Source: Eukaryota sp. GEM-RC1 (taxonomy: Eukaryota). Taken from it: a DNA stretch of 64,000 nucleotides. The DNA lies in the NCBI GenBank assembly GCA_040285855.1, contig JAUFOQ010000004.1:1240001-1304000 (forward strand). Direction: 5' to 3'. The translations under genes and the position numbers were made by a program. The stretch's first letter is position 1, and each line of letters opens with the position of its first letter. Shown here one piece after another: positions 15,801 through 60,548 of the stretch. Below the pieces are notes generated by a model. That model had not been told where the DNA came from. It saw only the letters and a program-made list of their open reading frames with translations, and searched no databases.

Positions 15801-18800
15801 TTCTGGTTGAAGTTGAGGGCATTTCATTTTACAGTTTCTCTGTAATCCAAAACAGTTTTTATTTTGACAATTGTCCATCTTTGTTATCTTATCTAAGTGA
15901 ATCTTACATGATCTTTGATATGGTGATTTCTCAAATAGGAAATTGTTTATTAGTTGGATCTTCTTTTTAAATATTGTCCCATTCAACATGTCCATTGAAA
16001 TCAAGAATTTTATTATTTTTCCACCAGAGGTTAGATTTAATTCACAAATTCAATTTGTACTTAGTGAAGATATTTCTCATCTCTTCATAACACACGGAAG
16101 TCAAACTATTTCCGTACGGAATGGTGCCAATATTTTAAATTTGAAGGATTCTGACACCTTCATTACTCTTCACAGATACTCTCAGTCAATGAATGTCAGT
16201 TTTGTTACTTCTTTCATTTACTCATTAATTCCTGATGTGATTGAGGTAAATCACCCTCAATCCATTTTTATTGATCAAAACACCTTATTGTATGATTTAG
16301 ATGTCAGTTGTTCTGGTAACTGTGATTTGGCTTTGGATCATCTTCCGAACTCCACTATCAAGGTTTCTTTTACTGGTATTGAACCTGGATCAATTGTACT
16401 GGAGTTTTACGTCAACTATTATAATTCAAATTTCTACTTCCGAATCCCAATATCAGTAGAAAGACCTCCTGTATTTGAACTTTTAAGTCCAAATGTTGTG
16501 TTTACCTCTGTAAATTCTTTAGTTTTCATTCACAGTTACTCACATTTTGATTTGGAATCCTCTTTTCATTTGATGATTCTATTATTGAACCTACTAATGC
16601 TGAGCTCCTCTCCAGTTCTGATTCCTTCTTTGTTTACAGATTTGAACTGAATCTTACTTCCATGTCAGTTCTTGAAGGGGAATATGTCCAAGACCTATGT
16701 TGGAGTCAGATAGGGTTCAGAAGACAATTGGTTACTGAAATTAAAATATTTAATTTGGATTTCAGTAGTAACGATCAGGTAAGTGTTTTTGAACATCGTG
16801 ATATTTCTGTTCACTTCCGAGGAAATCTTACTTCAAAAGTGACTTGTTCTATTGATGGTCAAATCTTCGTTGGAAAAGTTGTTGATAATGTGTTGGTTTG
16901 CAAGAGTGTCCGGCTTCCAACATTTCAACAACACGTGCGTGTTGACGTTTACTATGATCAATTTCTTTTGAATTCTTTTGAACTTTCTGGTGAGGTTTTT
17001 TTGGAGGAGATATGCTTTCAAACATTTCATCATCATCCTTTGGTTAATTCTTCTGAAATTATTTCAAATCAGAACACAAATTTAATATTCGACGGCTCAA
17101 GATGCTGTAGTGTTGATGTTTCCTATTGTTCAGAATTAATGTTAAAAAAAGAATTAGTTACATTCGATTTTCCGTCCCTATTTGACATTCATCACGTTAT
17201 TATCACGTCTAATTCTAGTTGCGAAGATATTGATTTTGGACTTCCTTTTGAACTGATCGCCAATGATCACGCTATTTCACCTTCTATTATTTGTAAGCAA
17301 ATTCCTAGCGGATATTCCTTCGCATCAATGTGTGAGATAGATGTAATTTTTCCAAATACTTCTGAGATTACTCTAGTAGCTCTAGAAGATGTTTACTTAC
17401 TAGAAGTAGAGTTTTATGGATACAAATCTAATTCTTGTTTTAAACCTTTTCATGGGGAAAAGGTGTTACTTCACTAGGAGAAGTAATTGATGAAGTTGTT
17501 TATTTGAGATTTAATAATCAATCGTTTGATTCAATTTCAGAATTCAAACAATTCGTAATTGATAAGTCAACGTTCTGGTCATCGTCATTTCTTACTTTTC
17601 CCACTGAGTTGTATTCTCCTTATTGTTATTATTCTACTGTTAGTTATCCAACTGTTTTGACTGCTTCATCAGCATCATCTTTTGTCTTTCTAGCTGATGT
17701 AGTAGAACTAAATCCACAATTTTTAAACATTTCTATCCCAATTATTTGTGTTGATGCTTTAAATTTCATTGTTCACTGTAGTGATATGTTTACAGTAACG
17801 ACGTCAACATTTGAATTCTTGAATTTTGAATTTTTAAACAATTCATTGATTTTCTCTTTCCTGAATTTGATCAAACTAGGAGAACATTCATTATCAATGA
17901 CTTATGGGCAAAGTCAATTTTACTGGAATGGGATTATTGTTCAAAATTTCAATGAAATATTTGAAATTAGTGATTTGAGAACTAGTAAGTGTGATCATCA
18001 TTTTACTTTAGTTAATACGTGTACATCATTGGACTTTGCGTCCACATTAATAACTCAAAATCCTTTTACTAATCAATCGAAAATAATTTTGATGTCAGAT
18101 TTAAGTATAGATCTTGAGTTTGATACTTCAGTCCTGCATGTTGTTAATGGATCAACTTTGGAGATTATTGGACCTCCACATCAATCAATGACGATTACAC
18201 TTTCCTATCTGTCCCAATCTACTACTATCGATTTAGTTTCAAATGATTGTCACTTTCCTAAATTGAATTCTCGACATGGATGTTTATGTCCAAAAGGAAT
18301 GGAATTTAATTCTCTTGGTGAGTGTGTGGAATGTTCTTTAAATTATTACTCACATTTTGAATTTAATTCAGAGTGTAGATCTTGTCCTTTTCCTAGAATT
18401 ACTCTTCAAAAAGGTTCTAGTGATCTTGACCATTGTGTTTGTCCTTTAAACACTCTAGATTCTATAGACTCTTGTTTACCTTGTCCTCATTTAGCTGAAT
18501 GTGGATACGGAAATTTGACTGCAATTGAACCTGGTTTTAGATTAAATACTGATACTTGGGAACTAGATGAGTGTAATTTTTGGTTCAATTGTCATCAAAA
18601 TTCTTGCAGATCACGTCATGCTTATGGAGATTTGTGTCAATATTGTACTGAAGATGCTGTATTTAGCAAGATTTATTGTTTTGGTATGGAAAATACTTGG
18701 TTAAAAGTACTATCATTTCTTTGTTTTACTTCTATTTTGTTTGTTGCTGATAGATTAGTTATTCGACTTTCTATTGTTGAATCAAAGTTCAAGTATATTC

Positions 18801-19429
18801 GACTGGCAGCGTCATCACTTTCTACATTTGGTCAAAAAAGATTATTGGAACAATTTTCAAATTACTTTAATATTCTTAATATCATCTTTTTTGTTTTGCC
18901 TCCGATTTTCTTTCGTAGGGCGTCTATTTGGGTGATTTTCATTGAATTTTTATCTTCTATATTTCATTTTGATTCGTCACGAATGTTGTTTGTTGTTTTT
19001 ATGGTCTCAATGTGTGGACTTTCGAAAATCGTATTATCACGATTTTTTAAAATTTGTAATTTCAATGTGAGACATAGTGCTTTCTTACTAGGAGCGGTAC
19101 TTTTCTCTATCAATTTTCTGTTTGGTACATCACTTTTTTTTCTTAATCATGAAGGGCCATCATTTTGGCAAACTGTATTTCTGAGTTTTCACTTGAGTTT
19201 TGTAATTTATGTGTTGATAGTACAACGTCATTCTCCTTATTTTCTATCACTAATATGCTACTTTGTAATCCTTTTTGCTTCTTTATTTGAGAGTTTAATG
19301 TATTTTATAATTCAAAACCTTATGTTAGTTTTGCTTATCAGTTTCTCCACTACTACTATTGAGGTAATTCTTTATGGAATTTCTTTACTTTTCAGTATGC
19401 CGTTTACTTTTAGTTTCTTGAAATTGTAG
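6844..19429 (+). pseudogene. Giant surface-protein paralog B, full length (~4,190 codons): signal peptide, RCC1 propeller (~7360-8380), LamG (~9060-9640 and ~10443-11030), beta-solenoid, TIG-like, stalk type 2, Cys-rich, TM type 1
   Basis: ATG 6844 gives MFLTVLLLFFCCWAHP (signal-like). RCC1 motifs VYSWGRNRNGQLGIG and LWSWGSNSLGQLGTG; LamG motifs WISLIVTTD…MYVNG…FKGRIRRVAVF. About ten homopolymer frameshifts plus two in-frame stops: TGA 14502-14504 (TGT in C) and TAA 15396-15398 (TCA in D). Confidence 0.85.
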
Positions 19430-28384: not shown

Positions 28385-31300
28385 CTACAATTTCAAAAAA
28401 CTAAAAGTATACGACACACTAAAAAGTAGAGAAACTGCAAAAGTATTACATCAACAGTAGTTGTGGAGAAACTGATAAGTATAACTATGATGAAATTTTG
28501 AATTATAAAATAGAATAGGCTCTCAAATGATGAAGCAAAAATGGTGACAAAATAGCATACTAGTGATAAGAAATAAGGAGAATGACGTTGTACTATCAAC
28601 ACAAAAATTAAAAAACTCAAGTGAAAACTCAGAAATACAATTTGCCAAAATGACGGCCCTTCATGATTAAGGAAAGAAAGTACTGTGCCAAACAGAAAAT
28701 TGATAGAGAAAAGTACCGCTCCAAGTAAAAAAGCGCTATGTTTCACATTGAAATTGTAATTTTTAAAAAATCTTGATAAAACGACTTTCGAAAGTACAGA
28801 CAGTGAAATCAGCACAATAACAAACAACATTCTTGACGAATCAAAATGAAATATAGAAGATATAAATTCAATAGCAATCACCCAAATAGACACCCTACGG
28901 AAAAAAATCGGAGGCAAAACAAAAAAGACGACATTTAGAATATTAAAGTAGTTCGAAAGCTGTTCTAATAATCTCTTTTGACCAAATGTAGAAAGAGCCG
29001 ACGCTGCCAGTCGAATATACTTAAACTTTGATTCAACAAGAGATAGTTGAATAATCAATCTATCAGCAACAAATAGAATCAAAATCAAGCAAATTAATAA
29101 TATCACCTTTAACCAAATATTTTCCTTACCAAAACAATAAATCCTAGAGGAAAAAGCTTCTTCAGTACAATATTGACACAAATCTCCATAAGCATGACGT
29201 GATCTGCAAGAATTTTCATGACAACTATACCAAAACACACATTCATCTAGTTCCCAAGTATCAGTATTTAATCTAAAACCAGGTTCAATTCCAGTCAAAT
29301 TTCCATATCCACATTCAGCTAAATGAGGACAAGGTAAACAAGAATCTATAGAATCTAGAGTGTTTAAAGGACAAACACAATGGTCAAGATCACTAGAGCC
29401 TTTTTGAAGAGTTATTCTTGGAAAAGAACAAGAACGACATTCTGAATTGAATTCTGAATTTGAAAAATAATTTAGAAAACATTCCACACATTCACCAAGA
29501 TAATTAAATTCCATTCCCTTTGGACACAAACATCCATGTCCAGAATTCAATTTAGGAAAGTGACAATCATTTGAAACTAGATCAATAGTCGCAGTATGAG
29601 ATAAATAGGATAGTGTAATCGTCATTGATTGGAGTGGAGACGTGACTAACTCCAGCAAACGGCCATCTAGAATATTAATACCAGCGTCAATGTCAATAAC
29701 TAGAGTAATATCAGAAAGAAGAACTTCGCTAGTAAGATTGTAGAACTGTTCCTGAATTACAAACTTTGAGGTAATGTTCAAAAGAGTACATGATTGGTCT
29801 CCATAATATTGATGACCACAATAGGAAACATTCAATTGATCGACATTTAAAAATTCTGCAAAGTTTTGAACTATCGTTCCATTCCAATTTAGAAGCCGGG
29901 AATTGAATTCGTAATCAACTCGATGTTCCTGTAATTGAGGTAATTCATTAAAGAAGAAGATTACATTATTGGAAAGGAAAACGACATAATTGAACTGAAA
30001 AGTAGAGGAAATAATCGAAATAGAACCATTACAGTCAACACAAAATCCAATATTATCGACACATTTTATGGGAATTGAAATATTTAAATAATTTGAATTG
30101 ACTTCAACAATTGTTTGACTGAAAACCAAAGAAGTTGGATCAGAAGCAGACAGAGTCACAAGAAAAGGTGTAAATGAATAGAAACAATTTGGAGAAACGA
30201 AACCAGTAGAAAATTGAACAGTTGAAGTGGACCAAAACATTTCTTTCTGAGAAATAAACGATTCAAACTGTACCGTTGAGTTGAATAATGAAGTTTCAAA
30301 CCCCAGATATACATCTTCATCAATCACTTCCCCAAGAGCAGTAAAACCACGTCCAAAAGAAAAGGGTTTAAAACAAGAATCTGATACATGCCCATAAATT
30401 TCTAATTCCAATATATACAGATTTTCAAGAGCAATTAAAATAATTCCAGTGGTTCGTGGAATGATGATGTCAATAGTACACATTGAAGCAAAAGCAAAAC
30501 CACTGGGAATTTGTTCACAAGAATATGCAGAAGACAGCGTTTGATTGTTAGCAATCAGTTCAAATGGAAGGTAATAATAGGATTCGTGACAACTAGTGTT
30601 TGTTGTAATCACAATTTGAAATATATCAAAAGAAGCATCAAACATTGCATTGATCGAGTCAAATTGTGAGATAAATTCGGAACAAAAAGACACGTCAACA
30701 TTACAACACCTGATACCATCAAACATTAAGTTATTCGTAAAAGTGTTAGTAAAATTAATCCTAGGATGCTCGCCAAATGAAGCAAAACAGACATCTTTGA
30801 GAAATGCTTCACCTTGAATTTCAACTGAGTTGATGAGTACCCCATCAAAAAAAAAGTTCTAGTTCAACAAACTCTAGATAAGTTGGAATAATGACATCGT
30901 CACAGAACAAAGAATTGTTAGAAGTAATTCCTGTGAATTTTTGAGAGTCAATAGAACAAGTTAAATCGGAGTATAAATTACCTTCAATATTGAAAGAAAT
31001 TGTACGGTGTTCAAAAACACTTACAAAATCTGTAGACGAAGCCTCAATATCGAAAACAACAATAACACCAACGTGTTGTAAGCTAAATCCAGACTGTTTC
31101 CAAGACCAGTGGTGATAGCTTTGTCCTTTTGAAAAGTGCAATGACGAGATATTAAACACGTAAGTTAATTGAAAATTAGAACTCGACACGTCATTAACTT
31201 CAGTAGGATTTAAAATAAGATCATTAACCAAGAAAACGGAATCTGGAAAGAAGTTACCACTAAAAGAGATCATGATAGCTTGAGGATTGGAAATAGAAAT

Positions 31301-34300
31301 CACAGAGGAGCTCAACAATTCGAGTACTGGAGGTTGGTAAACCGAAACATGATGTACAAAATTGAAATTTGATTGGAAATACCAAACAACGAAGGAAATA
31401 TCAATATTTCCTTCATCCAATCCAACAAAGATAATTTCAATGTGATATGAATTATCAGAAGAAGTACTCAATTGACAATTATCAGAACATTCCACTGAAT
31501 ACAAATAATTGGGATCAGTTATTTCAATTTGAATTGTCTGGAACAAATTGATTTCCACTACTGATGGTATGTTTTCATTAGGAAAAGAAGAAATAGAACT
31601 AATATTGACTGATTCTGACAGACTAGATAAAGTAATCCAAAGACTAGCACTTTCAATATTTAAAATATTTACTCCTTGGTGAAGAGGGAAGGTGTTACTT
31701 CCAGTAGAGATATAGAGATCATTGACAAACTCAAGCAGATAACAATCAACAACAGAATTATAATAAACTTTGGGTGGAAAAACAACAAAATTAGCAATCT
31801 CTACAGAAAGATGTTCACTTAAATGACCAAAAGACAGACTCTGTAGGGTGAAGTTCCCTGTTCTAGTAAACTCAACATCGAAGTAAACCGTAGACTCATC
31901 AACTTTAATTAATTGAGAAGCAGAATTACTGAATGAGAAAGTACTTTGGATAATTGAAAAGTCATACAAATCAATTCCTTCTATTTCGATAGACAAGCTG
32001 TGAGTAACTGGACTATCAAACCATTGAATATAGTTGGGATAGATATAGGAGGGAGAGACAATAAAAGGAAGATTGAAAATAGAGTAACACGCAGAATTAA
32101 TACAAATACGTAATTCAGTTGGAACTCGAGAAATAAAAGAAGTAAATGTAACTTCGGCAAAAGATGGTGATACTTGGTAATTAGAAATATGAAGAGAGTT
32201 CGGAGAATTTAGCCCAATAAAAGTATTAACAAATGAAAAGTCGTCCAGAAAACTATAAATTGTAATTGAACACGGAACGCCGACAAAACAAACATAGTCA
32301 GTATTGTTAGCAACAAATGAAGTGACAGGTATTGAAATTAGGCGAATGAATTGAAGGAAAAATTCTACTGAAATTGCAAATTCAGTAATTCCATACAAGT
32401 CACCTGTTGAAATTTGCAATTCATCTTCATCAATAATTTCGTATGAAGCAGTATGAACAGACAATTCAAGAGATGAATTTTGAAAACAATGATACATTTT
32501 TGAGAAATAAGGTCCTGTTAATACTATTAATTCCCCAGACGGTGAAAGTGGTGGTGCTGGGAGATAACTAACTTGTGGAGGTGCAAAATTAAGTTGAAGA
32601 GAATTACTAGTTTGGTTCCCAACAATTAAATATACTTCAAAAGTATTAGAAGTGATATCACAAATATAGGGAACATAAAAAGAAATTTCATCATGAGTGT
32701 AATTATTAATCACAACTTGAGAGAAACTGAAAGACAGCGAAAAGTATTCAAAAGAGGTGGAAAAATCAGAACCATATATTGAAAAATGACCATGTAAATG
32801 GAAAGGATCGGTTGACAGGGACGAAATGACAGGTTTCTTGAAACAGTAATTGAAGGAAATTATTGAAGAATCTGTAGATCGAGAAAGAATCATTTCATGA
32901 CAACCATGACCTGCAAAAAGGATAAATCCAAATATTCATCATTATTTGAAGAATATTCAAGACTTTGATTGATTGAAGCTGTTGAATGATGAATAATAAT
33001 AGGATCTAACCCAAGATTAAAAGCAAACAGTGGTACAAATCCACCTCTAGTTGGAGGTTCTAGACTAACAAAATAAATAGGACAAACAGGAATGAATAAG
33101 TTGTGGAATGAAAATATTCTAGAAATAGTAAAATTAAAACAAATTGAATTATTCGTTGGATTGAAAGAAATAACATCATTTAAAAAGAAGTCAAGAGAAT
33201 TCAATACAAAGTTGTGGGAGAATTCATCATTATTAGGGACTGAGAGTTCCAGTAACTCTGACAGATATTCGATGTTATTAAAATTCAGAGAAACTTGACA
33301 GAAAGACGTGTTGCAGCAGTGTTGCGAAGGAAAAATTGAAATATTTGAAATAATTCTCGAAAGATCCAGTAATAAAGCATCACCAAGTATAACAGAATCT
33401 TCATCAATAAAAACAGACTTTGAAATTACTGGGAAATCTGACATTATATTGATATTAGAATGATCTAAAACCAATGAAGAAAAGAAGAATTCCTGATCAA
33501 AATTAAGAAAGTATAGGTAAGACTTTTCTGAATATAAACTCAACTTAAAGTCTTGGTTAGAAACACATCCAGAAAGATTAGAATTTTCCAGTGTTAGATA
33601 CGAGTCAATTAAAATAATATCATATACTAAACTATCTAAATCAGAAAGTTGACAACGATCCATTAACAGAGAGCGAAAATGAGTTTTGGACAGAGTTAGA
33701 ACCAAAACTGGAGAAACTCATAATTACGTATAACAATATTCTCAAAAGTACTATTACTTTCTATAGACTCTAGGAAAATAGAAGTTGAAACCATATCAAT
33801 GGTAACCTCTTCCACCTCCAGGGTAGAGTTATAAAGCACAAGTGTACTATTATTAAACGACGATAAACCAATGTTACCCAAAGATAAACTCAATGACGAA
33901 TCTGATAATAAAAACAAGGTATCAAATATTGAATCAGTAATGGCCAAATTCTGAGTAGTAATTGAACTATTAACAGAAGATTCTAGTATACTTCCTGTGC
34001 AGTTGAAAAGAGAAAGAGAGTTGATGGACAATTCTGAATTCAAGATGTTAAGAAAGAAGGACAGGTTCGAATTCTCGACCAAAACCATAGATAAAGAGGA
34101 ATCCGTCGAATTTAAGACACTGAAAACATCACCGTGAGTCTTTGAGAAATTCAAATTTTGCATGTGTAATTTACAATTGATTAAACTAAACCACACAGTA
34201 GAAATTGATTGATCAACTTCGACAGTGTTTAGAGAAATAGTTGAGAACGTACTATAAACAAAGTCTTTTGAAAAGACTGAAAACATAATTAAATTATTCA

Positions 34301-37300
34301 TGACACTATTAGACTGATCTAATTGAAATACAGTGTTAGCAGTTACTTCCGTTATTGATAAATGATTGAGTTTAATAGACGATGAGGAAGAAACAACCAA
34401 ATTATTAACATTCAAGTCATTAAAAATTGAATCGTCAACAATCATTGACGATGATGACAACAAGATTAACGAGTCAGACAAAGATCCGGAAAAAGACAAT
34501 TGTCGACAAAAACTGACGATTTGAGACATTCAAATAGACGAAAAGAATCGATGTCAAACAGACAGTTTGTTGTAGTTAAAGTGGAATTCTGAATTATAAA
34601 CAGACTATCATTAGAGACGGAAAGAACACTCACGAAATCAAAATTGAGTGATGAATCAGAAACCTCAAAAGAACATTATTACCGTATATAATTAAATTAT
34701 GGAAGGTCAAAGAAGACGAAACAATATCAAGTAAAGTCTCATCACTTCCATCAATGATCACGTCACCGAGACCAATAACTTCCCAATCAACATCAATTAA
34801 TTTGCCGAAACCTTGATTGAAGAAATAGTAACCACTATGGAAATAAACCTTCCCTTTTCTTCCCATTCTTTCTAAAACTCCTTTAAAAGAAATACAAGGA
34901 CTGTCAAAAGTACCACAACAAGGGTCATCAATACCAGAAGGAGAAATGTAAGAAACTTGATTTAAGTCGACTACAAAATCATTTACAGAGACAATTAGAG
35001 AAGACTTTGAATAAAAAGTGGATATAAGTGAAGCACAAGGATTAATTATGCTTCTAAATCTTCCATTAATTTGATCAGACTCTATCAGAGTATAATTATA
35101 GCTGGTTGAATCAGACTTTGTATCAAATTCAATTTCTAGTATTCCATCTAAATAAGCAGTTGAACCAACAATTAATTGAGTAAAAGAACTGTCGTTATTG
35201 ATTTGAAGAGAGATGATTGAAGAAGGAAAAAGAGAAAGGTTGTCGTTAAAAGTTAATGTAGATGAAGGATGAGTTCTTCCAAAATTTAAAATATTTGTAT
35301 CAATAGTACCAAATCCCGACATAGTTTGATAGTCAAAGAGAATAAAAAGAAATTCAATCCTAACAGTTGAATCAAAGAGCGCTAATGTTCCATTGAAAGT
35401 GAAAGAAACATTAGAAATGCTTACATCATTTCTCATCAAAACATCAGAATGACAAGCTATTGAACCACTAGAGGTCTGGAATTCTGAAACTGACACGTCA
35501 TCAAGAATCACGCGACTGTAGACATTAATAAAATTAGCCAATTTAACTTGTCCAGAGATCACTGCATTATCAGATGACTCTTGAACGATTAAAGAAGACG
35601 AGAAGTTCCCAGAAGAAATTTGAACTTCAGACGCAATTGCCATGGACCAATTTCCTAGTATTTGACAGTAAAAACAAGAGAAGAATCCAACAATTACTTC
35701 AGTACCCACTGTTGACTCAAAAGTTGAATATGACAAATTTAATCTATGAAAGTTGGAAATATCGTTCAAAAAGTGACTATTGATTGCAACAAAATTTAGT
35801 ACTGGTGACAAGATATCAACTGAGTCGTCATAGTAGAGCTCACTTGAATGAAGAGTAATAGTGGTGGAATCAGACAGAATTCTAGTGCTCTCACTTAAAA
35901 TCATTACAGAATTTCTATAGAGCTCAAGTTCTGTCAAATTCCTAAAAGCTACACCTTTTGATTGAAGGTTTGAGGAAGTTAAAGAGAGTGATCCAATGTA
36001 AAATGAAGCTGCTGCAAACGATACAGCAGAATCCACAAAAGTCAGTTTTCCATTTCCAAATATTCCCTGAGGAAGATCAAAGAGAGCAGTTCAATCTCAT
36101 CTTCTGTTAAAGTCCTGGTATAGAACTGAACAGCACGGATTTTACCTTGAAAATCAGTAACTGATGACGAATGATGAACTCCAGAAAGAGGGAAAAGATC
36201 AGGAGGAGGATCACTAAGGTGGGTACATCTATAGACACCAGAGGGATGTGCATGTCCTATTCTAATTCCATCTGCATAAATCCATGATTTCTGATGATCA
36301 AAGGTAATTACGAGATGAAACCATTTCTTGATAGGGAGCAGTGCATTAGTGTAATGAGAACCCCAATAAGACGTAGTATTTAAAAAGTAAAACTTACAAG
36401 TGCTTCCCATGTTAAATCCAATACCCCCGTCTTCAAAGTACAACCACAAAGAAAACGAAGCGTCTGTCCAGCCTTGAGTCTCAATAAGGTTTGGAACATG
36501 TAAGGTATCACCAGGTTTGATCTCAAAATAACCACCATTTTCATCAGTTTTCCACTCTGGTCCATCAATTTTGATTGCACTAGAATCGTGATTTTCCGAG
36601 TAATCCATAGTACTAGGCGAATAAACCCAGTTGTAGTAAAGAAACAAGTCAGGATCAGAAGAATCAAAGGTACTGCCAATAGTAAAATTAGAAGAAACAA
36701 CAGAGAACTCTGATTGTTCTAGAATTTGGAGAATATTGTGTGACTCAAAAGAGAATTCTGTTTGGAAAAGCGAATGAGAATTCAGAGTAAACAGTCCGTA
36801 ATTTGAGATATCAAAATTAGACCGAAATGAACAATACTCTGATAAAACAAAAGAATTGTAAAATTTCAATTCAGCAGAAGTACAGTCAGAAGAACGAGAC
36901 AAAAAAAGAGAAGACGACGGAGTACACTTGACAATTACTGAATCAAGAATTAATTGAGAATTATTTGAATGTAATGTAAGAGAATTATTAAAAACACCTC
37001 ATCTGTAATTGTCAATGATGCTACTCGTAAAACCTTTTCATCACCATAAAGATTGATGACGTTTACTTTGGCTTTACTTAGAGTCAGGATACCATCAAAC
37101 CAATAGATAACCAAAGCCTCTAAGTAACAGTCACAACTAAAGTCACTATTTGACAAAGAAAGAACATCAATATGAAGCTCTAAAGTAGTTGAAATAAATG
37201 AAGAACTCTCTAACTCAAGATTGGGAAGGAAGAAGTCAGAAGAAAGGAAACGGCCATGGATTTCAATGGTTGAATCTTCTTTAGCAACAGTATTGACCAC

Positions 37301-40252
37301 TCCAAAGAAAGCAGATGAAACAATAAATAAAGTAGAATTATAAGAATAAAGACTGTTTAAACTTAATGTCGACAATGAGTTTACGAGAAATGAAGAGTTT
37401 TCAATAATCATACTTCCATCACCAAATATTTGAGTTAATGATACTAATTGAGTTTGAGACAGCGCTTTAACTTCAATTTCAGAAAGTTTCTCTGAAAAAA
37501 CAGCAACTCTTCTAATTCTACCCTTAAAAAACTGATCAGAAGATGGTACCCAGTCATTACCACTCTTGTAATAGACAGATCCCAAAGGGAAAAAATCAGC
37601 AACCTCATCACAGTCATACTTGCCGTTCACAGAAGCAATCAGAGCTCCATTAATATACATTTGAGCTCCATTATGATCTGTAGTAACAATCAAGGAGATC
37701 CATTGATTTCTTGGAATTGACAGATCTTCAATGGTTACATCACCAAAAGATAACTGATCTCCGATTAATAATCCACAACCAGAAGGATCAGTACTAAATC
37801 CAAATTTACTTGTAGTGTCAGAGTCGAACCAAATTGAAAGCGCAATTGTGGCTGATTCCCAGCCAAATTTACCTGGAATATTTGGAATATTCAGAGTGTC
37901 AGTAAAACTTTCAAATTCGTAATAACCATCAGAATTCCATTGAGTACCAGAAACTTCTAATACATTATTATTATTACCAGAAAGATCATTTCCAGAAGGA
38001 CTATTTGACCAATCATAATATAGAAACAATAGAAGATCTGATCCAAGAGTAGAAGAAGAGGAAATGAATTGAATTTTAGAATTTCGGTCCAAATCAATAT
38101 TTGAATTAATATGAGAAACTACACGAAGTGTCAATGAAGTGTTGACCAATTTAAAATTTCCACCAAAAGTAACATGTACATCAAAATCAGAGCAGAAAGA
38201 CATCTGTGGAACTTCAATTACTCCATTGATAGAAAGTAATAAATCATTAGTAAGATTTAACTCAACGTTAAAACCAAAAGTCATCATTTTACCAATATAT
38301 ATTCTACTTAATTTCAGTTCAGGATTAGAAGAACAAAACACCAACGTGTTTACTTTCAATTCTCCAACACCTTCAATTGTTCCACAATACCAATACAAAG
38401 TTTCAACAAAAACATTAGATTCTAAAGAAAGAGTCGAACATTCCGAAGCGCCAAAACTAATTGAATTGAAGAAAGTTTCCATTGGAGAGCTAATAGACAA
38501 AAGTCCATTTAAATTGAATTCAGACAAGAAAAAGAAAGAATCACTGGACAAATTCAATGACCCAGAAAGAAAAACTGGAAGAGAAATCAGATTAAACTGT
38601 TGAAGACCATTATCATTGACACTTCTCGATAATGAATTATTTTCTTCAAATATCAACACTCCATTATTAGATGACGATTCCATCGAATAAACAACAACGG
38701 GAACTGACTTAAATGCAAAATTTGATCGACTGTAAACGCTAATCCCAGAAACCTTTTTGTCCTCGAAATAAGGAATAATGTCAGGAGTCCATTTATCTTC
38801 ATCTGTATGAGTAATTCTTCCCAGATTATTAGAAAACGAAGTACCCCATGACCACACGTCATTGTTGACGTCAACAGCAACAGAGTGATCCCAACCTGCA
38901 GCTGCAGTTATCACGTTTCCAATGTTTGTTACTGGAACTGGAATAGATGAATTACTGGTACCTCCAGTTCCTAACTGACCCCAGTTATTCCTACCCCAAC
39001 TCCAAAGCTTCTGGTTCACATCAATTCCAAGAGCATGATTTAGAAGGGTGTCAATAAAGATAAATTCAATATGACTAGTAAAATGAGTGAACGGAGGTTG
39101 AGTTTCATCAGTAGTTCCTAATTTTCTACCACACGTAAGAGTAGAACCATCCTCTTTGATGAAAAAAGAAGCAATTCCAGCAGCAATAAATTTAATATTC
39201 TGTAAGTATTCAATTTGAGAAGGCGATTCCATGATGCCACTATTTTCACTACACAAAATACCATTAGACTCACTGCCCCATCCAAAAACTTGCCCATCTC
39301 TAGTTAAAGCAAAAGTAGTAGAATGGCGACCAGCAATCTGTTTAACATTATTTAAATTTGGAATCAACGTGGGAATATTTCTTTCAGTCAAATCTCCTAA
39401 ACCTAACTGCCCATGATCATTACGGCCCCAAGAATAAACCGAACCAGAAATATTCAAAGCAAAACTGGAATGTTGTGAGGACAAAATTTGAATAATGTGC
39501 GATAAATCAATTTTACCATGAATATTTCTTCCATCACCATTGAATCCAAGTTCTCCATAAGTATTACTTCCAGCAGTGTAAACGTCACCATTAATCAAAA
39601 GTATCATAGAATGGATTCTTCCAAGAGAAGCGTGTCTAATAGAATCAGGTAAAGTATAAGATTCAGGCGATATACCATGAGAAGATTCTTGCAAGCCACC
39701 TCCAAGATGTCCTTCGGAATTAAATCCCCAGACATGAAGAAGATCAGAACTTAGTGGAAAATGACTAGTATTGAGGGAAGCGGAAGTAGAATTGACAAGA
39801 ACAAGTTCACTGAACCCATGTAGATCAATTGAACCACGTTTCCAGTCAAAGAGATCAGTGACTATGAGTTTGTGAGAAGAGAAAGTAATGGGGTTAGAAG
39901 CATCCACAAGAAGAGCTTTAACGGAAGAATAAGAGAGAGGAGAAGCATGATCGGAGCTCAAGTTACCTCCTTTGATGATGAGACTATCAGAAACGGTGAG
40001 AGTAGAGCTATCTGTGAAAAGAAGCTCAACATTGGAAGAAAGAGTGAGAGATGATATGGTAACATCAGAATCAAGAGTCACTGTTACAGCGACCGTCTGA
40101 GAAGACAGAATAACAGAAGAAGACAGAGATGGAATCTGAGGACTGTCCCAATTGTTAGTATCTGACCAAAGACCATCCGAAGTAACGTTCCATTGATGAA
40201 CTGAAGCAAAAGAGACGCAGCAGACCACAAGGAAAAGTGATGTGATAATCAT
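28385..40252 (-). CDS. Giant surface-protein paralog C, probably intact (~3,957 aa): signal peptide, RCC1 (~39740-38710), LamG (~38030-37450 and ~36645-36060), beta-solenoid, TIG-like, stalk type 1, galactose-binding-like domain, Cys-rich block, multi-pass TM
   Basis: MIITSLFLVVCCVSFAS signal. Seven consecutive ORFs join by single-base corrections in T runs (about 36990, 36080, 34668, 34490, 33705, 32915 and 28440 short by one; 30850 long by one). Corrected length is 11,874 nt = 3,958 codons, and I found no in-frame stop. Confidence 0.8.
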
Positions 40253-45837: not shown

Positions 45838-48800
45838 ATGATCGCTATTATTCTGATCCTTTGTTGTTGTGCTTTTGCCTCAGTCCATCATTGGAATGCC
45901 ACTACTGATGGGTTTTGGTCTGATACAAGCAACTGGGACACAGCTGACATACCCTCCCAGTATTCTTCCGTTATTCTTTCACCTCAAACCTTTCCTATAA
46001 CAGTAATTGTTGAATCTGAAGTTCTTGTATCATCTCTTACACTCTCGTCCAATGTTGAGCTTCTTTTCACACACAACTCTAACCTGACTGTTTCTGATAG
46101 CCTCACTATCAACGGGGGCAGCTTGAGTACTCATCTTTCTTCCTCTCTCTCATTTTCTTCTGTTGAATCTCTCGTTATGGCTTCTTCAGAACTTGTTACT
46201 CTCTCTTATCACAAACTGATAGTCACTGGACTCTTTGACTGGAAACGTGGTTCAATTGAGTTGGATGGCTTCAGTGAGCTTATTCTTGTCAATTCTACTT
46301 CTCTCTTTCCTTGATAGTGACTTTTCTCAGGGTCCCAATGATCTTTATGTCTGGGGATTGAACTCCAATGGTCAACTTGGAGGAGACTTGCAAACTTCTT
46401 CTGTTGGTATTTCTCCTGAATCCTATACTCTTCCTGTTTCTATTAGACAAGCTTCTCTTGGAAAATTTCACTCTCTTATACTCTCAACAAGTGGTGACGT
46501 TTACACAGCTGGAAGTAACATTTATGGTCAATTAGGATATAATGGTGAAGGAAGAACTGTACATGACAAAATTGAACTTTCCAATATTATTCAAGTACTC
46601 TCATCTCATAACTCTAGTTTTGCTTTAACTGCTTCTGGTCACGTGTTCTCTTGGGGAGGGAATTTTAATGGAGAATTAGGACTAGGAGATGTGATTGACA
46701 GAAATACTCCCACTTTAATTGGAAATTTAAATAATATTAAGCAAATTGCTGGTCGATATTCTACCACTTTTACTTTGTCTAGAAATGGTCAAGTTTTTGG
46801 ATGGGGAAGTAGTGATTTCAATATTTTATGTAGTCACAATACCATAAATATTATCTCACCCATGTTAATAGATGGTCTTGAAAATGTTAAATTTATTGCT
46901 GCTGGAAGTGCTGCTTTTTTCATTAAAGAGGATGGTTCTACTCTTACTTGTGGTAGATTTCTGAGCACAACCACTTCGCAACCTTCTTTTACCCTATTTG
47001 CTGAGGATATTGAGTTTACCTTCATTGACACTCTTGTCGGTCACGCTCTTGGAATTGATGTGAACCAAAAGCTATGGAGTTGGGGTTGGAATAGTGACGG
47101 TAGACTAGGTGATGGTGGCTCAACCAACTCTCCTACTCCAGTCACAGTAGTAACCATTGGAAAAGTTATTGCTGCAGCTGCAGGATGGGATCATTCTGTG
47201 GCTGTTGACGTCAACAATGACGTGTGGTTTTGGGGTACCGAATCGATACAATTTCGCTTCTTTTCTCCTCAGCCTATTTCTCCTTTACTTGGAAAAGGAA
47301 TCACCCATATACATGCTTATTTCAGGTGTAATGTTGCTTTGGCGCCAGTTCCTCCACGTGTCAATTTCATCACGTCATCGTCTCAGTCTGGGGTGATGAC
47401 TTTGGAAGAAAATAATCAAAACATTGGATCAATTAATGATGAAAGTATTCAACAGTATAATCTTATTTCTATTCCAGTTTTTCTTTCCGGTTCATTGAAT
47501 CTGACCAGCGATTCTTTCTTTTTCTTGTCTGAATTCAATTTAAATGCAATTATGTCAATTAATTCGCCAGTTGAGAATCTTTTCACTTTACTTTTTCTGG
47601 GAGCTTCTGAATGTTCAACTCTTTCTTTAGAATCTAATGTTTTTGTTGAAACTTTGTACTGGTATTGTGGAACAATTGAAGGTGTTGGAGAATTGAAAGT
47701 AAATACGTTGGTGTTTTGTTCTTCTAATCCTGAACTAAAATTAAGTAGAATTTCTATAGGTAAAATTATGATGTCTGAATTAAATGTTGAATTAAAGCTG
47801 ACTAATGATTTAATTTTTTCTGTTAATGGAATAATTGAAATAGCACAGTTGTCTTTCTATTCAGATTTGGATGTTAATTTAACTTTGAGTGGAAATATTA
47901 AATTGGTCAACACTTCATTGAACCTTTGTGTCGATTCTCATATAAATTCAAAGATTCAATTAGACCAGAGTTCTAAAATTCAAATTATTTCATCTTCATC
48001 TACTCTTGGATTTGATCTTTCGTTGTTTCTTTATTATGATTGGTCAGAAAGTTCTTCTGGAAATGATCTTTCTGGTAATAATAATAATGTACTAGAAGTT
48101 TCTGGTGCTCAGTGGAATTCTGATGGTTATTACCAATTTAAAACTTCTACTGACGTTATCAAAATTCCAAATATTCCAGGCAAAATCGGCTGGGAATCAG
48201 CTACAGTTGCATTTTCAATATGGTTTGACACTGACACTACCATTAGATTCGGATTTGGCACTAATCATTCTGGTTGTGGATTAGTTATTGGAGATCATTT
48301 ATCTTTTGGTGATGTAACCATTGAAGATCTGTCGATTCCAAGAAATCAATGGATCTCATTGATTGTTACTACAGATCATAGTGGAGCTCAAATGTATATT
48401 AATGGAGCTCTGAGTGCTTCTGTGAACGGGAAGTATGACTGTGATGAGTTTGCTGATTTCTTCCCTTTGGGATCTGTCTATTACAAGAGTGGTAATGACT
48501 GGGTACCATCGTCTGATCAGTTTTTTAAAGGTAGAATTAGACGAGTTGTTGTTTTTACACAGAAACTTGCTGACATTGAAGTTAAATCACTTTCTGAAAC
48601 ACAATTAGGATCTTTAACTCAATTAATTGGTGATGGAAATTTAGTTATCCAAAACTCTTCTCTTCTTGTAAACTCGTTATCAACTATGGGTTTAAATAGT
48701 CTTTATTCTTTTAATTCTTCGTTATTCATTGTTTATTTGGAGTAGTCAATACTGTCGCTAAAGGAGGTTCAACTATTGAAATCCATGGACGTTTCCTTTC

Positions 48801-51800
48801 TACTGACTTCTTCCTTCCTAATCTTGAGTTAGATTATTCCTCATTTACTTCAACTACTTTGAAACTTCATTTTGATGTTCTTTCTTTGTCAAGTGGTGAC
48901 TTTATTAGTGACAGTTACTTGGAAGCTTCAGTCATTTATTGGTATGCTGGTTCATTATCTTTACATGAAGGCAAAGTAAACGTCATCAATCTTTATGGTG
49001 TCGACAAGGTATTACTGGTAGAATCATTGACAATTACAGATGAGGTGTTTTTAATAATTCTCTTACATTACATTCAAATATTCATCAATTAGATTTTAAT
49101 TCCGTAATTTTGAAGTGTACTCCTTTGTCCTCTCTGTTCTTGTCTTGTTCTACTGACTGTACTTCTATGGAGTTAAATTTTTACAATACTTTTGTTTTGT
49201 CTGAATATTGTTTGTTTCGGACTAATTTTGATATCTCAAACTATGCCTTCTTTACTCTCAATTCAAATTCCTTTTTCCAAACTGAATTCTCTTTTAAGTC
49301 TCATATTATTATACAAGTTCAACAGCAAGCAGAATTCTCTGTTCTTTCTTCTAATTTCACCATCAACAGCACTTTTGATTCCTCTGATCCTGACATGTTT
49401 CTTTACTACAACTGGATTGATTCACCTAGCCCAATTGACTTCTCAGGAAATCACGATTTCAGTGCAATCAAAATTGATGGACCAGTGTGGGAAAGTGATG
49501 AAAATGGTGGTTATTTGAAAATTACGTCAGGTAATACTTTGCATGTCCCAAACCTTCCTGGTACTACTGGCTGGATCCAAGCCACAATTGCGATGTGGCT
49601 GAACATTAATGGAGGGGTATGGGAATCTTAGCAAATGATCATTGTAAATTTTCAATCGAACCTACTCGAATTTGTTGGGGTTCAGCTTGTTCTACAGTAC
49701 ACTTCCCAGCTGGGAATTGGTTTTATTTGGCAATTGTAACAACTTTAGAAGAAAATTTACGCTCGAAAGCTAACATTTATATCAATGGAAAATATATTAA
49801 TACAATTTCATCCAGTGGATACAACTGCCCTTCTCCTCCTTCGTACTTTCCCCTTTCAAGAGTGTATCCTTCAGGTTCATTTTTCCGAGGTATGCTTCGT
49901 GCTGTATTAGTGTTTCGAAGAGTTTTATCAGCTGAAGAGATAAGTGATATTGATTTTAGTTTTCCTGTTAGTGTTGGGGGTCAATGAAAGTTCTCATTTA
50001 TTAATTCTTATTGTGCTCTTTCATCTTTGTACTTTGAAATTCGTTTTTTATCATTAACTTCGTCATTTCTACAATCAAGCAACGGCGGACTTGGGCACCT
50101 TGTAGAACTTGATCTTAGTTCTAATTCAGAGATGGTTTTTGTCCGTAGTCGCGACTTTGATTCTAGTAATCTTACTGTCTTTTTTAGACTCAAGCAAACT
50201 TCGCTATGTAGAGTTTGATTCTGATATCCAGGTTTTTATTGATTCAGTTTATCTAACAAATACTTCTTCTGTAATCACTGATGCTATTCTACATGTAGGC
50301 CATTTTCATTGGCTTGAGGGTGAGTTCTTCCCGCCTGGCAACATATCTTTAAAAATACTTGTCTTGTATGGTGATTCTAAAACTTGGTTTCAGAACTCTT
50401 TAATTATTGAAGAAGAATTGCATTTCAATAATTCTCTTACTTTTTCTATTTCTCGTCTCATTTTAATTACTGTTTCTGTTACTTGTTTTCCTGGTTCAGA
50501 ACTTCTTCTTGATTCACATTCTTTTGATGAAAGTTTACTTGAAGTCAAGATCCATCTTCATCTAACTTCCAATTGTTCTCTCACTTCACTATCACCAGTT
50601 CAAAGTACTGGGATTATTACTCTTACGAATCACTCAGTACTAACTCTTTTGAATGATTTTAGTTCATCAGGTGTACTTGAGATTTATTATGATGGAGAGT
50701 TAGTTCTTAAGAATACTACTATTACGTTTAATGGTTCGCTGTATTTACATGAAGAACTTTTTCTGTACTATAATTGGATTACGTCATCTAATCAAATTGA
50801 TTACTCAATGAATCATGATAACAATACTATCATAATTGATGGACCAGAGTGGAAAACTGACGATATCGGTGGTTATTTAGATATCACACCTGGTAACACT
50901 CTCCATATTCCAAATATTCCTGGAGAATTTGGATGGAGAGATGCTTCAATTCCTCTCTGGATTTACTTTGAAGAAGGAGGAATGGGTTTTTGGGGCCAGA
51001 GTCCTTGTATTTTGTACCTAACAACAAACCTAATTTGGTGGGGTGACTATTATTTGATACATATTAAATTCCCTCTTAAAGAATGGTTTCATCTGGTGAT
51101 CACTTTTGATCAATCAGAAGTTTACTTTACGTTGATGGAGAGTTTTTGTATACATTTCAACCAGATACTCCGTATGGTTGCCCCAACGGACATCGCTCTT
51201 TTTCCCACTTTCAGACATTACAGATGCCCCTCAGAAGTTTCGAGGAAAGATTCGTGCAGTTCAAATTTTCACCAAGACTTTAACAGTATCTGAAATTAAT
51301 CAATTAACAATCGAGCTACCTACATATGTTTGGGGACAAGGAAAAGTTCCTCTATTAAACTCCAACGTTGAGTTCTTATCTTCTAAGTTTTTCATTAGAT
51401 CACTTTCTTTAACTTCTTCAAAACTTCAAGCAAATAACGTTGTTTTTAGAGATTTAGATCAACTCGAGTTGTATATTGAGTCTAGAATGAACTTAAGCCA
51501 AAACGCGAAAATCTATTCTGATCGTCTTTCAATAACGTTAAATTCCAGTAAGCTCTTTTATGATGATTCAGTCAACATTTCCACGTCCATAATTAGTTTG
51601 ATTGCTTTCAAAAGCCATTTTCAGAATGATTTTGAGTTTGATACTATTCAAATTTTGAACTTGTCATTATCAAATTTTCAGTCAACATCTAGTACTGGAA
51701 TAGCTGTTGGCCATTTCTCTTGTGATCATTGTCAGATCCTAGGAAATTCTACTTTGGTGATAGAAACTAATTCTGAGATTAACTCAGGAAATTTCGCATC

Positions 51801-57800: not shown

Positions 57801-59024
57801 ACAATTTCCTATTTATCGCATTCTGCTACTAGCAATCTGGTATCCAATGATTGTCACTTTCCTAAATTGAATTCTGGACATGGATGTTTATGTTCAAAAG
57901 GAATGGAATTTAATTCTCTTGGTGAATGTGTGGAATGTTCGCTAAATTATTATTCAAATTCAGAATTTAATTCAGAATGCAGATTTTGTTCTTTTCCTAG
58001 AATCACTCTTCAAAAAGGTTCTAGTGATCTTGACCAATGTGTTTGTCCTTTAAACACTCTAGATTCTGTAGATCATTGTTTACCTTGTCCTCATTTAGCT
58101 GAATGTGGATATGGAAATTTGACTGGAATTGAACCTGCTTTTAGATTAAATACTGATACTTGGGAACTAAATGAGTGTGTGTTTTGGTATAGTTGTCACC
58201 AGAATTCCTGCAGATCACGTCATGCTTATGGAGATTTGTGTCAATATTGTACTGAAGATGCTGTTTCTAGTCGAATTTACTGTATCGGAAAAGAACATTT
58301 ATTTTTTAAAATTCTTCTATTCATGTTTTTTGTTGTAGTTCTGTTTGTTGCAGATGTGCTCCTCATTGTCTTTCTTCAATCAAAAGTATTGTCACGTGCT
58401 TTGCGATTGTCCATCTCTTCTTTATCGTTTTTCCGATCATCTCAAATTTTGAAGCATCATTTAAATTATTCAAATATTTTGAATGTCTTTCTTTTCTCAG
58501 TTTCAGTCTTCAGTTACAAAAGAGTTTCCTTCAGTTTAATTTTTCTTGAGTATGTTTCATCTCTGTTTTATTTAGATAAGTCAATGATATTGTTACCTTT
58601 AATTGTGTGCTCTCTGTCGTTTTCTTCAAGATTTTGCTTAACAGAATATTTTAAGTTCAAAACTTTTAATATTTTCCATAGTTCCTTCTTTACTGGAGCT
58701 GCCTTTATTTCACTAAATTATGTTTTTGGAATGACTTTGTCTCATTTCTTTAGTCAACAATTGCCATTTCTATTATTTATTTTTGTTTTTATTCATATTA
58801 TTTTTGTTTTTTATGTCATATATGCTCAACGAACACTCCCTTATATCTTTTCACTTGTTGCTTATTGTGTCATAATCTTTGCAGAGTTGCTGCCCAGTTT
58901 AATTTATTTCATTGTTCAAACAGTTTCATTGATTTGTCTTTACTGTGTTTCTACTTCTTTTGAACGAGTTGTTCTTGGAATTAGTTCTTTAGTTTGTGTA
59001 CATAATTTCATGGTGTATGTTTGA
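45838..59024 (+). pseudogene. Giant surface-protein paralog D, full length (~4,390 codons) with three LamG domains (~48025-48610, ~49397-49985, ~50757-51340), stalk type 2 and a divergent TM type 2
   Basis: MIAIILILCCCAFAS signal, collinear with B and C. Many homopolymer frameshifts, a ~10-nt deletion near 48735, and in-frame TGA 49985-49987 (GGA in B). Confidence 0.85.
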
Positions 59025-60185: not shown

Positions 60186-60548
60186 ATCTCAAAAGTTGCT
60201 GCATTTATGGTTTTGTATTTTGACGATCACCGCTTCTACTAAAAGTTTTAGTCCAAAACTGGAAAGAAATTCCGATGCAAGTGCAGCATCAAGTGAAGTA
60301 CAACATCTTGGAAACGTTTGTTAGGATCCGCTTCCCACCTTTAATTCCATAATAAGCAACAGTAACCCGGCACTGTTGTTCAGCATTAGATGTAGAATCA
60401 AAAGAGAACATTATATAAAAGAAGAAAAAGTTTGGGAAAAAGATGGAAATTTATTGGGAGTATGTATCTGAAGTGAAAAGCACTGTGTACATTGTAGTCA
60501 AGACCTTCCAGTCTATATCCTGAACCATAATCCCGACAATTCAAGACC

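Follow-up and report, generated by a model that had tools for sequence, protein, structure and literature searches.

What kind of protein does this locus encode, does its broken reading frame reflect a dead gene, and what would such a protein recognize? The window analyzed here is a stretch of 64,000 nucleotides from Eukaryota sp. GEM-RC1, and the gene in question (copy g3; 28393..40252, minus strand, as are all of its features given below) is split into eight ORFs that encode 3,954 aa once seven breaks are bridged, with 0 internal stops across 3,954 codons. All motifs quoted in the initial annotation are found at this locus on the minus strand: WNVTSDGLWSDTNNWD at aa 21 (nt 40192), FDWKRGSI at aa 135, and LYWYCGTIEGVG at aa 619 in the N-terminal part; IYWFDGIL at aa 1049, LDGILEIEF at aa 1702, YTLI..GRF at aa 1721, and KPVISS.. 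at aa 2475 in the middle; and MFDGIRCC at aa 3178, LELEIYG at aa 3283, and the Cys motifs at aa 3590-3650 in the C-terminal part. The three turns that it had written as (F/Y)xWxxG are present, although the literal pattern matches once, the other two starting with L or I.

The window also carries four sister copies of g3, all on the plus strand: g1 (1..5799, of which only the 3' half lies in the window; 1,311 bp are deleted, and a GAA codon has become the stop TAA), g2 (6846..19429, start approximate; RCC1-LamG-LamG inserts and a TGT to TGA stop at 14502), g4 (45838..59024; RCC1-LamG-LamG-LamG inserts), and g5 (60545..64000; the 5' part, with a 959-bp deletion that takes most of RCC1). Given the stop substitutions or large deletions in g1, g2, and g5, some members of the family are decaying, and g3 may be as well. 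The copies are segmental mosaics: across the Ig/F5/8C part, g2 is 76-81% similar to g4 and 53-65% similar to g3, and its TM part is 86% like g3 and 55% like g4. With dN/dS among copies at 0.26-0.52 in all eight comparisons, the reading frame of the family is under purifying selection, which is stronger on the g3 branch, where 27 synonymous changes stand against 20 nonsynonymous ones, than on the g1 branch (16:26). The neighboring copies match proteins of Eukaryota sp. GEM-RC1, the host being a metamonad and apparently a flagellate that feeds on bacteria, and the GEM-RC-type database proteins found are fragments, every one. Two Skoliomonas litria proteins, P0046 (3,403 aa) and P0047 (3,937 aa), are intact single ORFs with the module order of g3, collinear with aa 1612-3766 (25% identity, E 7e-129) and aa 1642-3732 (25% identity, E 3e-126), respectively; the TM region is only ~20% identical between the two species. 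None of the other strong matches is full length, the longest having 2,564 aa. The family comprises at least 26 clusters, a copy number that derives from protein searches only.

By alignment to the sister copies, the breaks in g3 (~36995, ~36091, ~34671, ~34496, ~33708, ~32926, and ~30855) are six one-base deletions and a one-base insertion; introns, considered as a cause, are ruled out by these one-base differences. We regard the breaks as likely to be, for the most part, long-read assembly errors. A run of at least four lies within 8 nt at five of the seven (background 24%, p 0.010), the other two having no long run within that distance; both of the other, unrelated genes in the window are likewise frameshifted; and the same single base is missing from two copies at several sites, with the pair differing between sites (g3 and g4 twice, g2 and g3, g2 and g4), a pattern that context-dependent errors fit better than descent does. 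BUSCO fragmentation in GEM-RC is also 8.9% for the genome versus 3.0% for the transcriptome (PMC11316075). The last three observations, together with 3,954 codons free of stops and the stronger purifying selection on g3 than on g1, count against the somewhat unlikely alternative that the indels are real and copy g3 is dead or silent, such broken copies being at most gene-conversion donors to a few intact loci. That reading draws on the nonsense substitutions and the 959-1,311-bp deletions of the sisters, on the fragmentary state of the GEM-RC-type proteins, on the exchange between copies that the mosaics show, and on the density of ~0.6 breaks per kb, which is high for a short-read-polished assembly. 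It concerns copy g3, not the anatomy of the family. We consider it very improbable that programmed ribosomal frameshifting or slippage acts at the breaks and gives graded truncated products: some do appear in two copies at homologous sites, within T runs, and six of the seven need a -1 shift, but the frame is intact there in other copies, there is no common motif, seven serial shifts would leave almost no full-length product, and the S. litria relatives are single ORFs.

Taking the bridged protein as the unit of analysis, the propeller and lectins named in the initial annotation are both there. An RCC1-like seven-bladed propeller (aa 170-514; 38711..39745) is matched by Pfam at E 3e-59 and by fold to VIA (Z 22.9, rmsd 4.2, 303 aligned). 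Of two LamG domains, the first, a LamG/concanavalin-like domain (aa 739-934; 37451..38038), has a Pfam match at E 2e-10 and a model that reaches Z 11.5-12 to LamG-type domains, and the second (aa 1200-1388; 36090..36656) has one at E 3e-11, with the break at ~36091 falling at the domain end. That these domains are inserted into a repeated scaffold, as had been suggested, is supported by comparison with paralogs, since one and the same turn of the stalk bears RCC1 in some of them and LamG in others. Following the FDW..G turn there are 14 RCC1 and 3 LamG domains among proteins P0001-P0051, and the strings of inserts in the family (R = RCC1, L = LamG) include R, L, RR, LL, LLL, RLL, LRLL, and RLLL. 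As judged from the paralog sequences, RCC1 and LamG domains are thus exchanged at fixed slots of the stalk. The RCC1 tree holds Skoliomonas-type entries only, local HMMs found neither RCC1 nor LamG in 52 bacterial passenger-type proteins, and tblastn of the first LamG domain against phages gave no match.

Defined positions of the propeller, presumably on one face, are hypervariable. Across nine domains, the A-B turn positions and those that follow the WG motif have an entropy of 2.11 bits against 0.83 elsewhere; these positions were first picked after viewing the alignment, and nine further domains, unseen at the time of choice, gave 2.11 against 1.11 bits (0 of 20,000 permutations). The variable positions align with GWRHT and WGWNK of UVR8, the former of which sits at the UVR8 dimer interface according to PMC4501546, and we presume that they form a binding face. 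At these positions pN/pS is 0.79, versus 0.39 at the remaining positions of the domain; as a value under 1, it gives no sign of positive selection on the propeller face, and relaxed constraint on surface loops could account for it too.

What carries these heads? A predicted signal peptide (aa 1-17; 40202..40252; hydropathy, and a helix at 2-18 in the model) is followed by a stretch with the N-terminal cap and the first unit of the stalk (aa 18-160; 39773..40201), which ends in the FDWKRG turn before the insert slot. Stalk segment 2 (aa 520-735; 38048..38695) is predicted to be beta-rich from its sequence pattern and low-confidence strands, segment 3 (aa 940-1195; 36669..37435) holds the break at ~36995, and segment 4 (aa 1396-1608; 35431..36069) opens with the GIFGNG turn that follows the inserts. 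Then come an autotransporter-passenger-like C-cap (aa 1609-1759; 34978..35430) and a second Ser/Leu/Asn-rich, beta-rich region (aa 1766-~2300; 33358..34959, end approximate), which opens with YISPSGIDDPCCGT, holds the breaks at ~34671, ~34496, and ~33708, and may be a beta-helix. The C-cap (~150 aa) matches bacterial autotransporter, T5SS/PEP-CTERM, and filamentous-haemagglutinin-like passengers at E 1e-8 to 1e-3, and 36 of the 49 weak matches scanned carry autotransporter/T5SS/FHA families. An HMM of the N-cap matches 6 of 52 bacterial-type proteins and 0 of 52 reversed ones; this cap also has an Amnionless Pfam match at E 4.4e-6, below the cut-off. These resemblances support a bacterial link of the scaffold for the two cap segments only.

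Of the autotransporter-passenger-like beta-helix that had been claimed, the part that stands is the resemblance of aa 1609-1759 and of the N-cap; one continuous beta-helix goes beyond what the model supports, its pLDDT being below 50 over most of the scaffold. AlphaFold runs covered aa 1-1086 and aa 3137-3954, on either side of aa 1087-3136; the N-terminal model (8 rows) has a mean pLDDT of 44.8, with values below 50 over most of the stalk and of 64-74 at aa 41-100. Among the 50 matches listed, fold searches with it gave only RCC1 and LamG and no beta-helix, a lack that is no evidence against one. The piece aa 1389-1862 leads to pectate-lyase/Pmp clusters of the atlas at 0.79-0.81, and atlas matches, all 0.90 or lower, are taken as leads only. 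NCBIfam returned nothing in seven of seven pieces at E 0.1, hence no autotransporter beta-barrel match, and tblastn of a stalk piece against plasmids gave no match. In the PDB sequence search, query A3 had 0 matches and query A6 only EphA4 and thyroglobulin (E 0.05-0.9); query A1 was dominated by RCC1 matches, and A4 was used instead.

Toward the C-terminus, a presumed Ig-like array (aa ~2392-3150; 30808..33084, with the breaks at ~32926 and ~30855) contains the IPT/TIG-like segment of the initial annotation (32585-32839), whose TIG match has E 0.012 in g3, below the cut-off, and 1.4e-4 in the paralog P0002, above it. The jelly roll after it (aa 3163-3293; 30379..30771) is consistent with the F5/8C or galactose-binding fold also proposed there, in that a model segment with pLDDT ~60 matches IFT25 at Z 8.8, an F5/8C domain at Z 7.5, and many CBM32s. 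A beta-rich region (aa 3294-3563; 29569..30378) with pLDDT <50 and no Pfam match at E 1 precedes the Cys-rich module (aa 3564-3708; 29134..29568), in which the expected ephrin-receptor-like repeat is recognized by PF07699 at E 3.9e-5, above the Pfam cut-off; in the S. litria relatives the match is at E 1e-9 to 7e-9, and the Cys pattern is conserved. The multi-pass membrane anchor (aa 3714-3954; 28396..29118) agrees with the earlier count of 8-9 hydrophobic segments without a cytoplasmic tail: hydropathy gives seven windows that do not overlap and one more hydrophobic segment that runs up to the stop codon, ~8 in all, and the C-terminal model (aa 3137-3954; 9 rows, pLDDT 36.2) has 9-10 helices there. 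Foldseek with this model found no match at E 0.001.

The mixed bacterial-like and eukaryotic architecture has parallels that speak against calling it unprecedented, namely cysteine repeat modular proteins (CRMPs; PMC9815656) and trichomonad Pmps (10.1101/454884). The body plan resembles both, and tests of membership place g3 in neither. CRMPs of Apicomplexa and ciliates combine beta-helix, Ig, lectin, and ephrin-like modules with nine TM segments (PMC9815656); as described in PMC9815656 and PMC9670195, they share with g3 a signal peptide (predicted in g3), a very large modular ectodomain, and a Cys-rich core, and they are characterized by a role as heterodimers in regulated exocytosis. In both, the ephrin-receptor-like Cys module (PF07699 in g3, with no separate EGF-like match) stands directly before the membrane domain, the nine TM of CRMPs comparing with ~8 in g3 by hydropathy and 9-10 helices in the model of pLDDT 36. 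Unlike CRMPs, g3 has RCC1/LamG inserts in swappable slots, autotransporter-like caps, and no tail, and its family has dozens of copies that diverge from one another, where CRMPs have 2-4 conserved genes. A core profile search among proteins of 686-2,000 aa found 14, none named CRMP. PMC9670195 gives no support for an F5/8C domain in CRMPs, the words "galactose" and "coagulation" occurring 0 times in it. Trichomonad Pmps, as described in 10.1101/454884, are like the g3 family metamonad, expanded, and related to bacterial autotransporter passengers; they have a TM anchor in place of the autotransporter barrel, and their expression raises adhesion. They have a single TM and a cytoplasmic (endocytic) tail, whereas g3 has 8-9 segments and no tail, inserted RCC1/LamG heads, and a free-living host; and unlike the Pmps of Chlamydia and trichomonads, g3 has 0 GGA[ILV] motifs and no excess of FxxN (29 versus 24.2 expected).

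Classical (type Va) autotransporters share, at the level of sequence, a passenger-like segment, the C-cap, with g3, and bacterial autotransporter, T5SS/PEP-CTERM, and FHA-like passengers share both the C-cap and the N-cap motif; however, the C-terminus of g3 is hydrophobic and helical, with no outer-membrane beta-barrel and no PEP-CTERM signal. Plant CRINKLY4/ACR4 pairs an extracellular RCC1-related seven-bladed propeller with a Cys-rich module (PMC4617170), as does g3, whose propeller we infer to be extracellular from its signal peptide. Fold matches to these receptors have Z 14.3 and 13.9, but CRINKLY4/ACR4 has a single TM and a kinase, and g3 a giant stalk, a multi-pass anchor, and no kinase. 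Fibrocystin/PKHD1 and Amnionless, eukaryotic surface proteins that cross the membrane once, contain beta-helix and IPT modules, the fibrocystin-like type being marked by a G8 domain, IPT and PbH1 repeats, and a single TM. They are not known to have RCC1/LamG slots, and g3 differs in its multi-pass anchor; Pfam gave no G8 domain in g3 at E 1 and one weak TIG. In the literature searched and the text supplements of PMC11316075, we found no description of this protein family.

We propose, with a probability of roughly 55%, that the family consists of giant, probably surface-exposed membrane proteins and supplies diversifying heads by which bacterial prey or substrate would be recognized or held, RCC1 and LamG being swapped on a stalk predicted to be beta-helical. 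The proteins would be secreted and then anchored by the bundle of 8-9 TM segments, with a glycosylated ectodomain (the bridged g3 protein has 61 NxS/T sites). A stiff stalk would hold these heads at a distance from the membrane. Proteins would bind at the face formed by the variable propeller positions and glycans at the LamG and F5/8C domains, and unequal recombination and gene conversion may shuffle the heads while stalk and anchor stay conserved. As there is no cytoplasmic tail, a signal would need TM loops or partner proteins. In favor of this role, PMC11603281 describes Skoliomonas as bacterivorous, with a groove for feeding, and the trichomonad Pmps of similar build raise adhesion on expression; against it, the same paper did not see GEM-RC cells attach to surfaces. 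A more elaborate version, in which a free-living, bacterivorous metamonad has assembled a combinatorial prey-recognition repertoire from a bacterial beta-helix scaffold, with a eukaryotic CRMP-like anchor in place of the barrel, swappable heads, a diversifying RCC1 binding face, and broken copies as donors for segmental gene conversion, is tentative, and we doubt that it holds in full. It would amount to a library of variant receptors like those of parasites, turned here to prey recognition.

Two other roles deserve weighing against that of prey or substrate heads. The proteins could be CRMP-like contact sensors, in which head binding, relayed via the TM bundle and probably a heterodimer, triggers phagocytosis or exocytosis instead of holding prey. 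The C-terminal plan of Cys-rich modules and ~9 TM beneath a large modular ectodomain (PMC9815656 and PMC9670195) suits this, and the C-terminal atlas neighbors, as a lead only, are eukaryotic Ephrin_rec_like/TRP/DUF7630 clusters at 0.86. We nevertheless find it unlikely, given the missing tail, a TM region only ~20% identical between two species, the absence of any CRMP from the 14 core-profile matches within the size range searched, and the contrast between the 2-4 conserved CRMP genes of Toxoplasma and Plasmodium and at least 26 clusters here. Quite unlikely, in our estimate, is a variable coat or decoy that protects from viruses, parasites, or predators, or else a self/non-self recognition system, with enemies rather than prey driving variability. 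The number of copies, their mosaic make-up, the hypervariability of the outermost domain, and the many copies that are broken would, by analogy, fit variant-surface families; yet the variation sits on binding-face positions of other RCC1 proteins over an invariant framework, which suits a binding site better than a shield, and lectin-type folds are present three times.

The molecular means by which phagotrophic protists recognize their bacterial prey and choose among it are still largely open. Beyond the initial annotation, what is new here is the RCC1/LamG slot swap, the hypervariability of the presumed propeller binding face, and the segmental mosaics. The RCC1 and LamG domains are separable candidate heads, with a variable face already mapped, that lend themselves to expression and binding tests, and the family is a natural case of a beta-rich scaffold that tolerates swaps of 190-350-aa domains at a fixed slot. 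If the proposed role is true, large surface families that use bacterial passenger modules as their base, recombine, and diversify would not be confined to parasitic metamonads.

The gene under study, g3, runs on the minus strand from an ATG at 40252 to a stop at 28393 and is read as eight overlapping ORFs. DNA alignment with the four sister copies in the window (g1, g2, g4 and g5) places six one-base deletions, at about 36995, 36091, 34671, 34496, 33708 and 32926, and a single one-base insertion at about 30855. The bridged protein has 3,954 aa and no internal stops. It has a hydrophobic stretch at its N-terminus and 61 NxS/T sites, and its last 240 aa are hydrophobic up to the stop codon. Every motif quoted in the initial annotation is found in it, including the quoted (F/Y)xWxxG turns, although the literal pattern, described as recurring, occurs only once.

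Domain and fold searches identify an RCC1 propeller (aa 170–514) and two LamG domains (aa 739–934 and 1200–1388). An ephrin-receptor-like Cys module, recovered by domain search, precedes about 8–9 C-terminal TM segments called from hydropathy and a low-confidence model, both as anticipated from sequence. The proposed TIG domain is weak in g3 (aa 2474–2558) but above cut-off in the paralog P0002, and the proposed F5/8C or galactose-binding fold probably corresponds to a jelly roll at aa 3163–3293. The fold matches of this segment (pLDDT about 60) have middling Z; the best are to IFT25 (Z 8.8, rmsd 3.0, 106 aligned), with an F5/8C domain (Z 7.5, rmsd 3.6, 109 aligned) and CBM32s also matched. 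The chimeric architecture noted in the initial annotation was confirmed as an observation, and its interpretation is supported in part.

Searches with N- and C-terminal pieces returned Eukaryota sp. GEM-RC1 proteins as 2/2 and 9/10 matches, with a piece of the window itself as the remaining one; one database protein, P0009, shows no visible difference from g4 across the aligned RCC1–LamG part. With a profile built from the five window copies over aa 1389–1862, a stretch free of inserts, 95 matches were obtained among 1.84 billion representatives, 41 with E 1e-10 or better, four of these from Skoliomonas litria. The S. litria proteins P0046 (3,403 aa) and P0047 (3,937 aa) are each encoded by one ORF and keep the module order of g3. 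At 25% identity they align with aa 1612–3766 and 1642–3732 of the bridged g3 protein, and their tblastn alignments run straight across the breaks at 32926 and 30855. Because these single-ORF relatives share the order and align collinearly, the giant-protein architecture is real. Another S. litria protein, P0048 (2,991 aa), combines an RCC1-bearing N-terminal half like theirs with a different C-terminal half having a single TM and a tail, from which the anchor half, too, appears exchangeable.

Assembly error is the favoured cause of the g3 breaks, because runs of at least 4 bases lie within 8 nt of 5/7 breaks (24% background, p 0.010), both unrelated genes of the window (2/2) carry frameshifts, identical base losses recur across changing pairs of family copies in the sister alignment, dN/dS is 0.26–0.52 in 8/8 comparisons of family copies, and on the g3 branch 27 changes are synonymous versus 20 nonsynonymous. 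Against it stand a 1,311-bp deletion of in-frame length and a GAA to TAA change in g1 (1485–1487 and 2669), TGT to TGA in g2 (14502) and a 959-bp deletion in g5 (60934), and the longest strong match outside S. litria has 2,564 aa. That g3 is a dead or silent copy is unlikely, if deserving of some weight, and concerns g3 alone rather than the family; programmed frameshifting at the breaks is highly improbable, and introns are unneeded to account for any family copy in the window. The source is probably GEM-RC, described as a Skoliomonas isolate and a free-living, anaerobic, bacterivorous metamonad (PMC11316075, PMC11603281); repeats make up 48% of its assembly, which was reportedly built from Nanopore reads and corrected with short ones, and BUSCO fragmentation is 8.9% in the genome versus 3.0% in the transcriptome (PMC11316075).

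The window also holds a gene at 21670–25700 (+) for a multi-pass membrane protein that carries a TmcB TPR domain (PF25474, E 3e-20), with a single break near 24800, flanked by a 94% identical 168-bp inverted repeat pair (21270–21437 and 27245–27411), possibly a small mobile element, and an LRR_6 repeat gene (E 1e-45) at 41909–43722 (+) with at least one break. AT skew is strong and strand-linked (about -0.2 over plus-strand genes, +0.2 over the minus-strand gene), and its sign marks coding direction here.

Heads are exchanged at fixed slots of the stalk. Among the database proteins P0001–P0051, the turn HKLIV..LFDWKRG.I.L...SEL leads into RCC1 14 times and LamG three times, mostly with a G.G turn after the insert; by sequence, this bears out the earlier suggestion as far as propeller and lectins being inserted into a repeated scaffold. 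The insert strings (R, RCC1; L, LamG) comprise R, L, RR, LL, LLL, RLL, LRLL and RLLL, many from fragments; g2 and g3 carry RLL and g4 RLLL, and the three insert-bearing S. litria proteins have RCC1 only. The RCC1 tree gives each of the two species a separate clade, and repeats within one gene often pair. The copies are also mosaics: the Ig part of g2 is nearer g4 (76–81% vs 53–65%), its TM part nearer g3/g1 (86–89% vs 55%). Within the propeller, 35 positions set by repeat landmarks, picked after sight of an RCC1 alignment, have an entropy of 2.11 bits versus 0.83, and nine held-out domains give 2.11 versus 1.11 bits at 28 scorable positions (0/20,000 permutations). The variable positions align with GWRHT and WGWNK of UVR8, the former reported at its dimer interface (PMC4501546). 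Since pN/pS there is 0.79 (0.39 in the rest of the domain), diversifying selection is at most suggested.

NCBIfam was scanned with 49 of the 54 weaker profile matches; the five set aside were P0051 and P0086, which resemble family fragments, and P0079, P0082 and P0090, which matched through another segment. Autotransporter, T5SS/PEP-CTERM or haemagglutinin families occur in 36/49 and the autotransporter barrel in 13/49, with E 1e-5 as the limit and scores that in many cases fall short of the curated cut-offs. Nearly all weak matches cover one stretch, aa about 1630–1750, and their label "bacterial" comes chiefly from domain content, because look-up of 23 gave names for four and a taxon for one (Planctomycetota). 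An HMM of 37 weak-match segments recovers the C-cap, aa 1609–1759, which is circular; it also finds S. litria proteins absent from the query (54 and 36 bits), with 22 shuffled or reversed controls at 0.6 bits or less. An HMM of the N-terminal unit, independent of the C-cap, matches 6/52 bacterial-type proteins at E <0.01 (reversed, 0/52). Because both HMMs match, N-cap and C-cap alike appear common to beta-helix surface proteins that are bacterial chiefly by domain content. The N-cap matches animal Amnionless too (E 4.4e-6), and the library samples eukaryotes unevenly, which limits what the cap matches say about donor and date. The autotransporter-passenger likeness first proposed holds for the two caps; the models cover aa 1–1086 and 3137–3954, and in the stalk pLDDT 64–74 is reached at aa 41–100 only. 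P0050, a haemagglutinin-like protein (2,798 aa), has a C-cap followed by an N-cap and then by another C-cap, which suggests that N-cap to C-cap may be a mobile bacterial unit.

With this module order, these slots, variability and mosaics, we consider it somewhat probable (about 0.55) that the family serves surface recognition or adhesion: variable heads would be held on a long stalk and used on prey or substrate, with surface display, ligands and role being inferred. Trigger receptors like the CRMPs are a rather improbable alternative; published accounts describe a general plan as in the g3 family (PMC9815656, PMC9670195), and the 14 matches of a core profile (proteins of 686–2,000 aa) include no CRMP. 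A defensive variable coat, for which such variability might also serve, is marginally less probable still. Partial precedents are the trichomonad Pmps, a metamonad case in which a passenger is combined with an anchor of eukaryotic kind (10.1101/454884), whose motifs are absent from g3; CRINKLY4, with an outer RCC1-like propeller and a Cys module (PMC4617170), which g3 likewise has, its propeller giving a fold match; and giant adhesion proteins of bacteria that contain RCC1 or beta-helix parts, for which a predation role is proposed (10.1101/2023.11.21.568195). The family would work like these, and the tests run assign it to none. Atlas neighbours of the g3 C-terminal part, eukaryotic Ephrin_rec_like/TRP/DUF7630 clusters, are leads only, and a description of the family was not found in the literature searched or the searchable supplements of PMC11316075 (one scanned file aside). 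The members are presumed surface proteins of the modular protist sort, and the family's interest lies in slot exchange and in a propeller with a hypervariable presumed face, both in a free-living organism.
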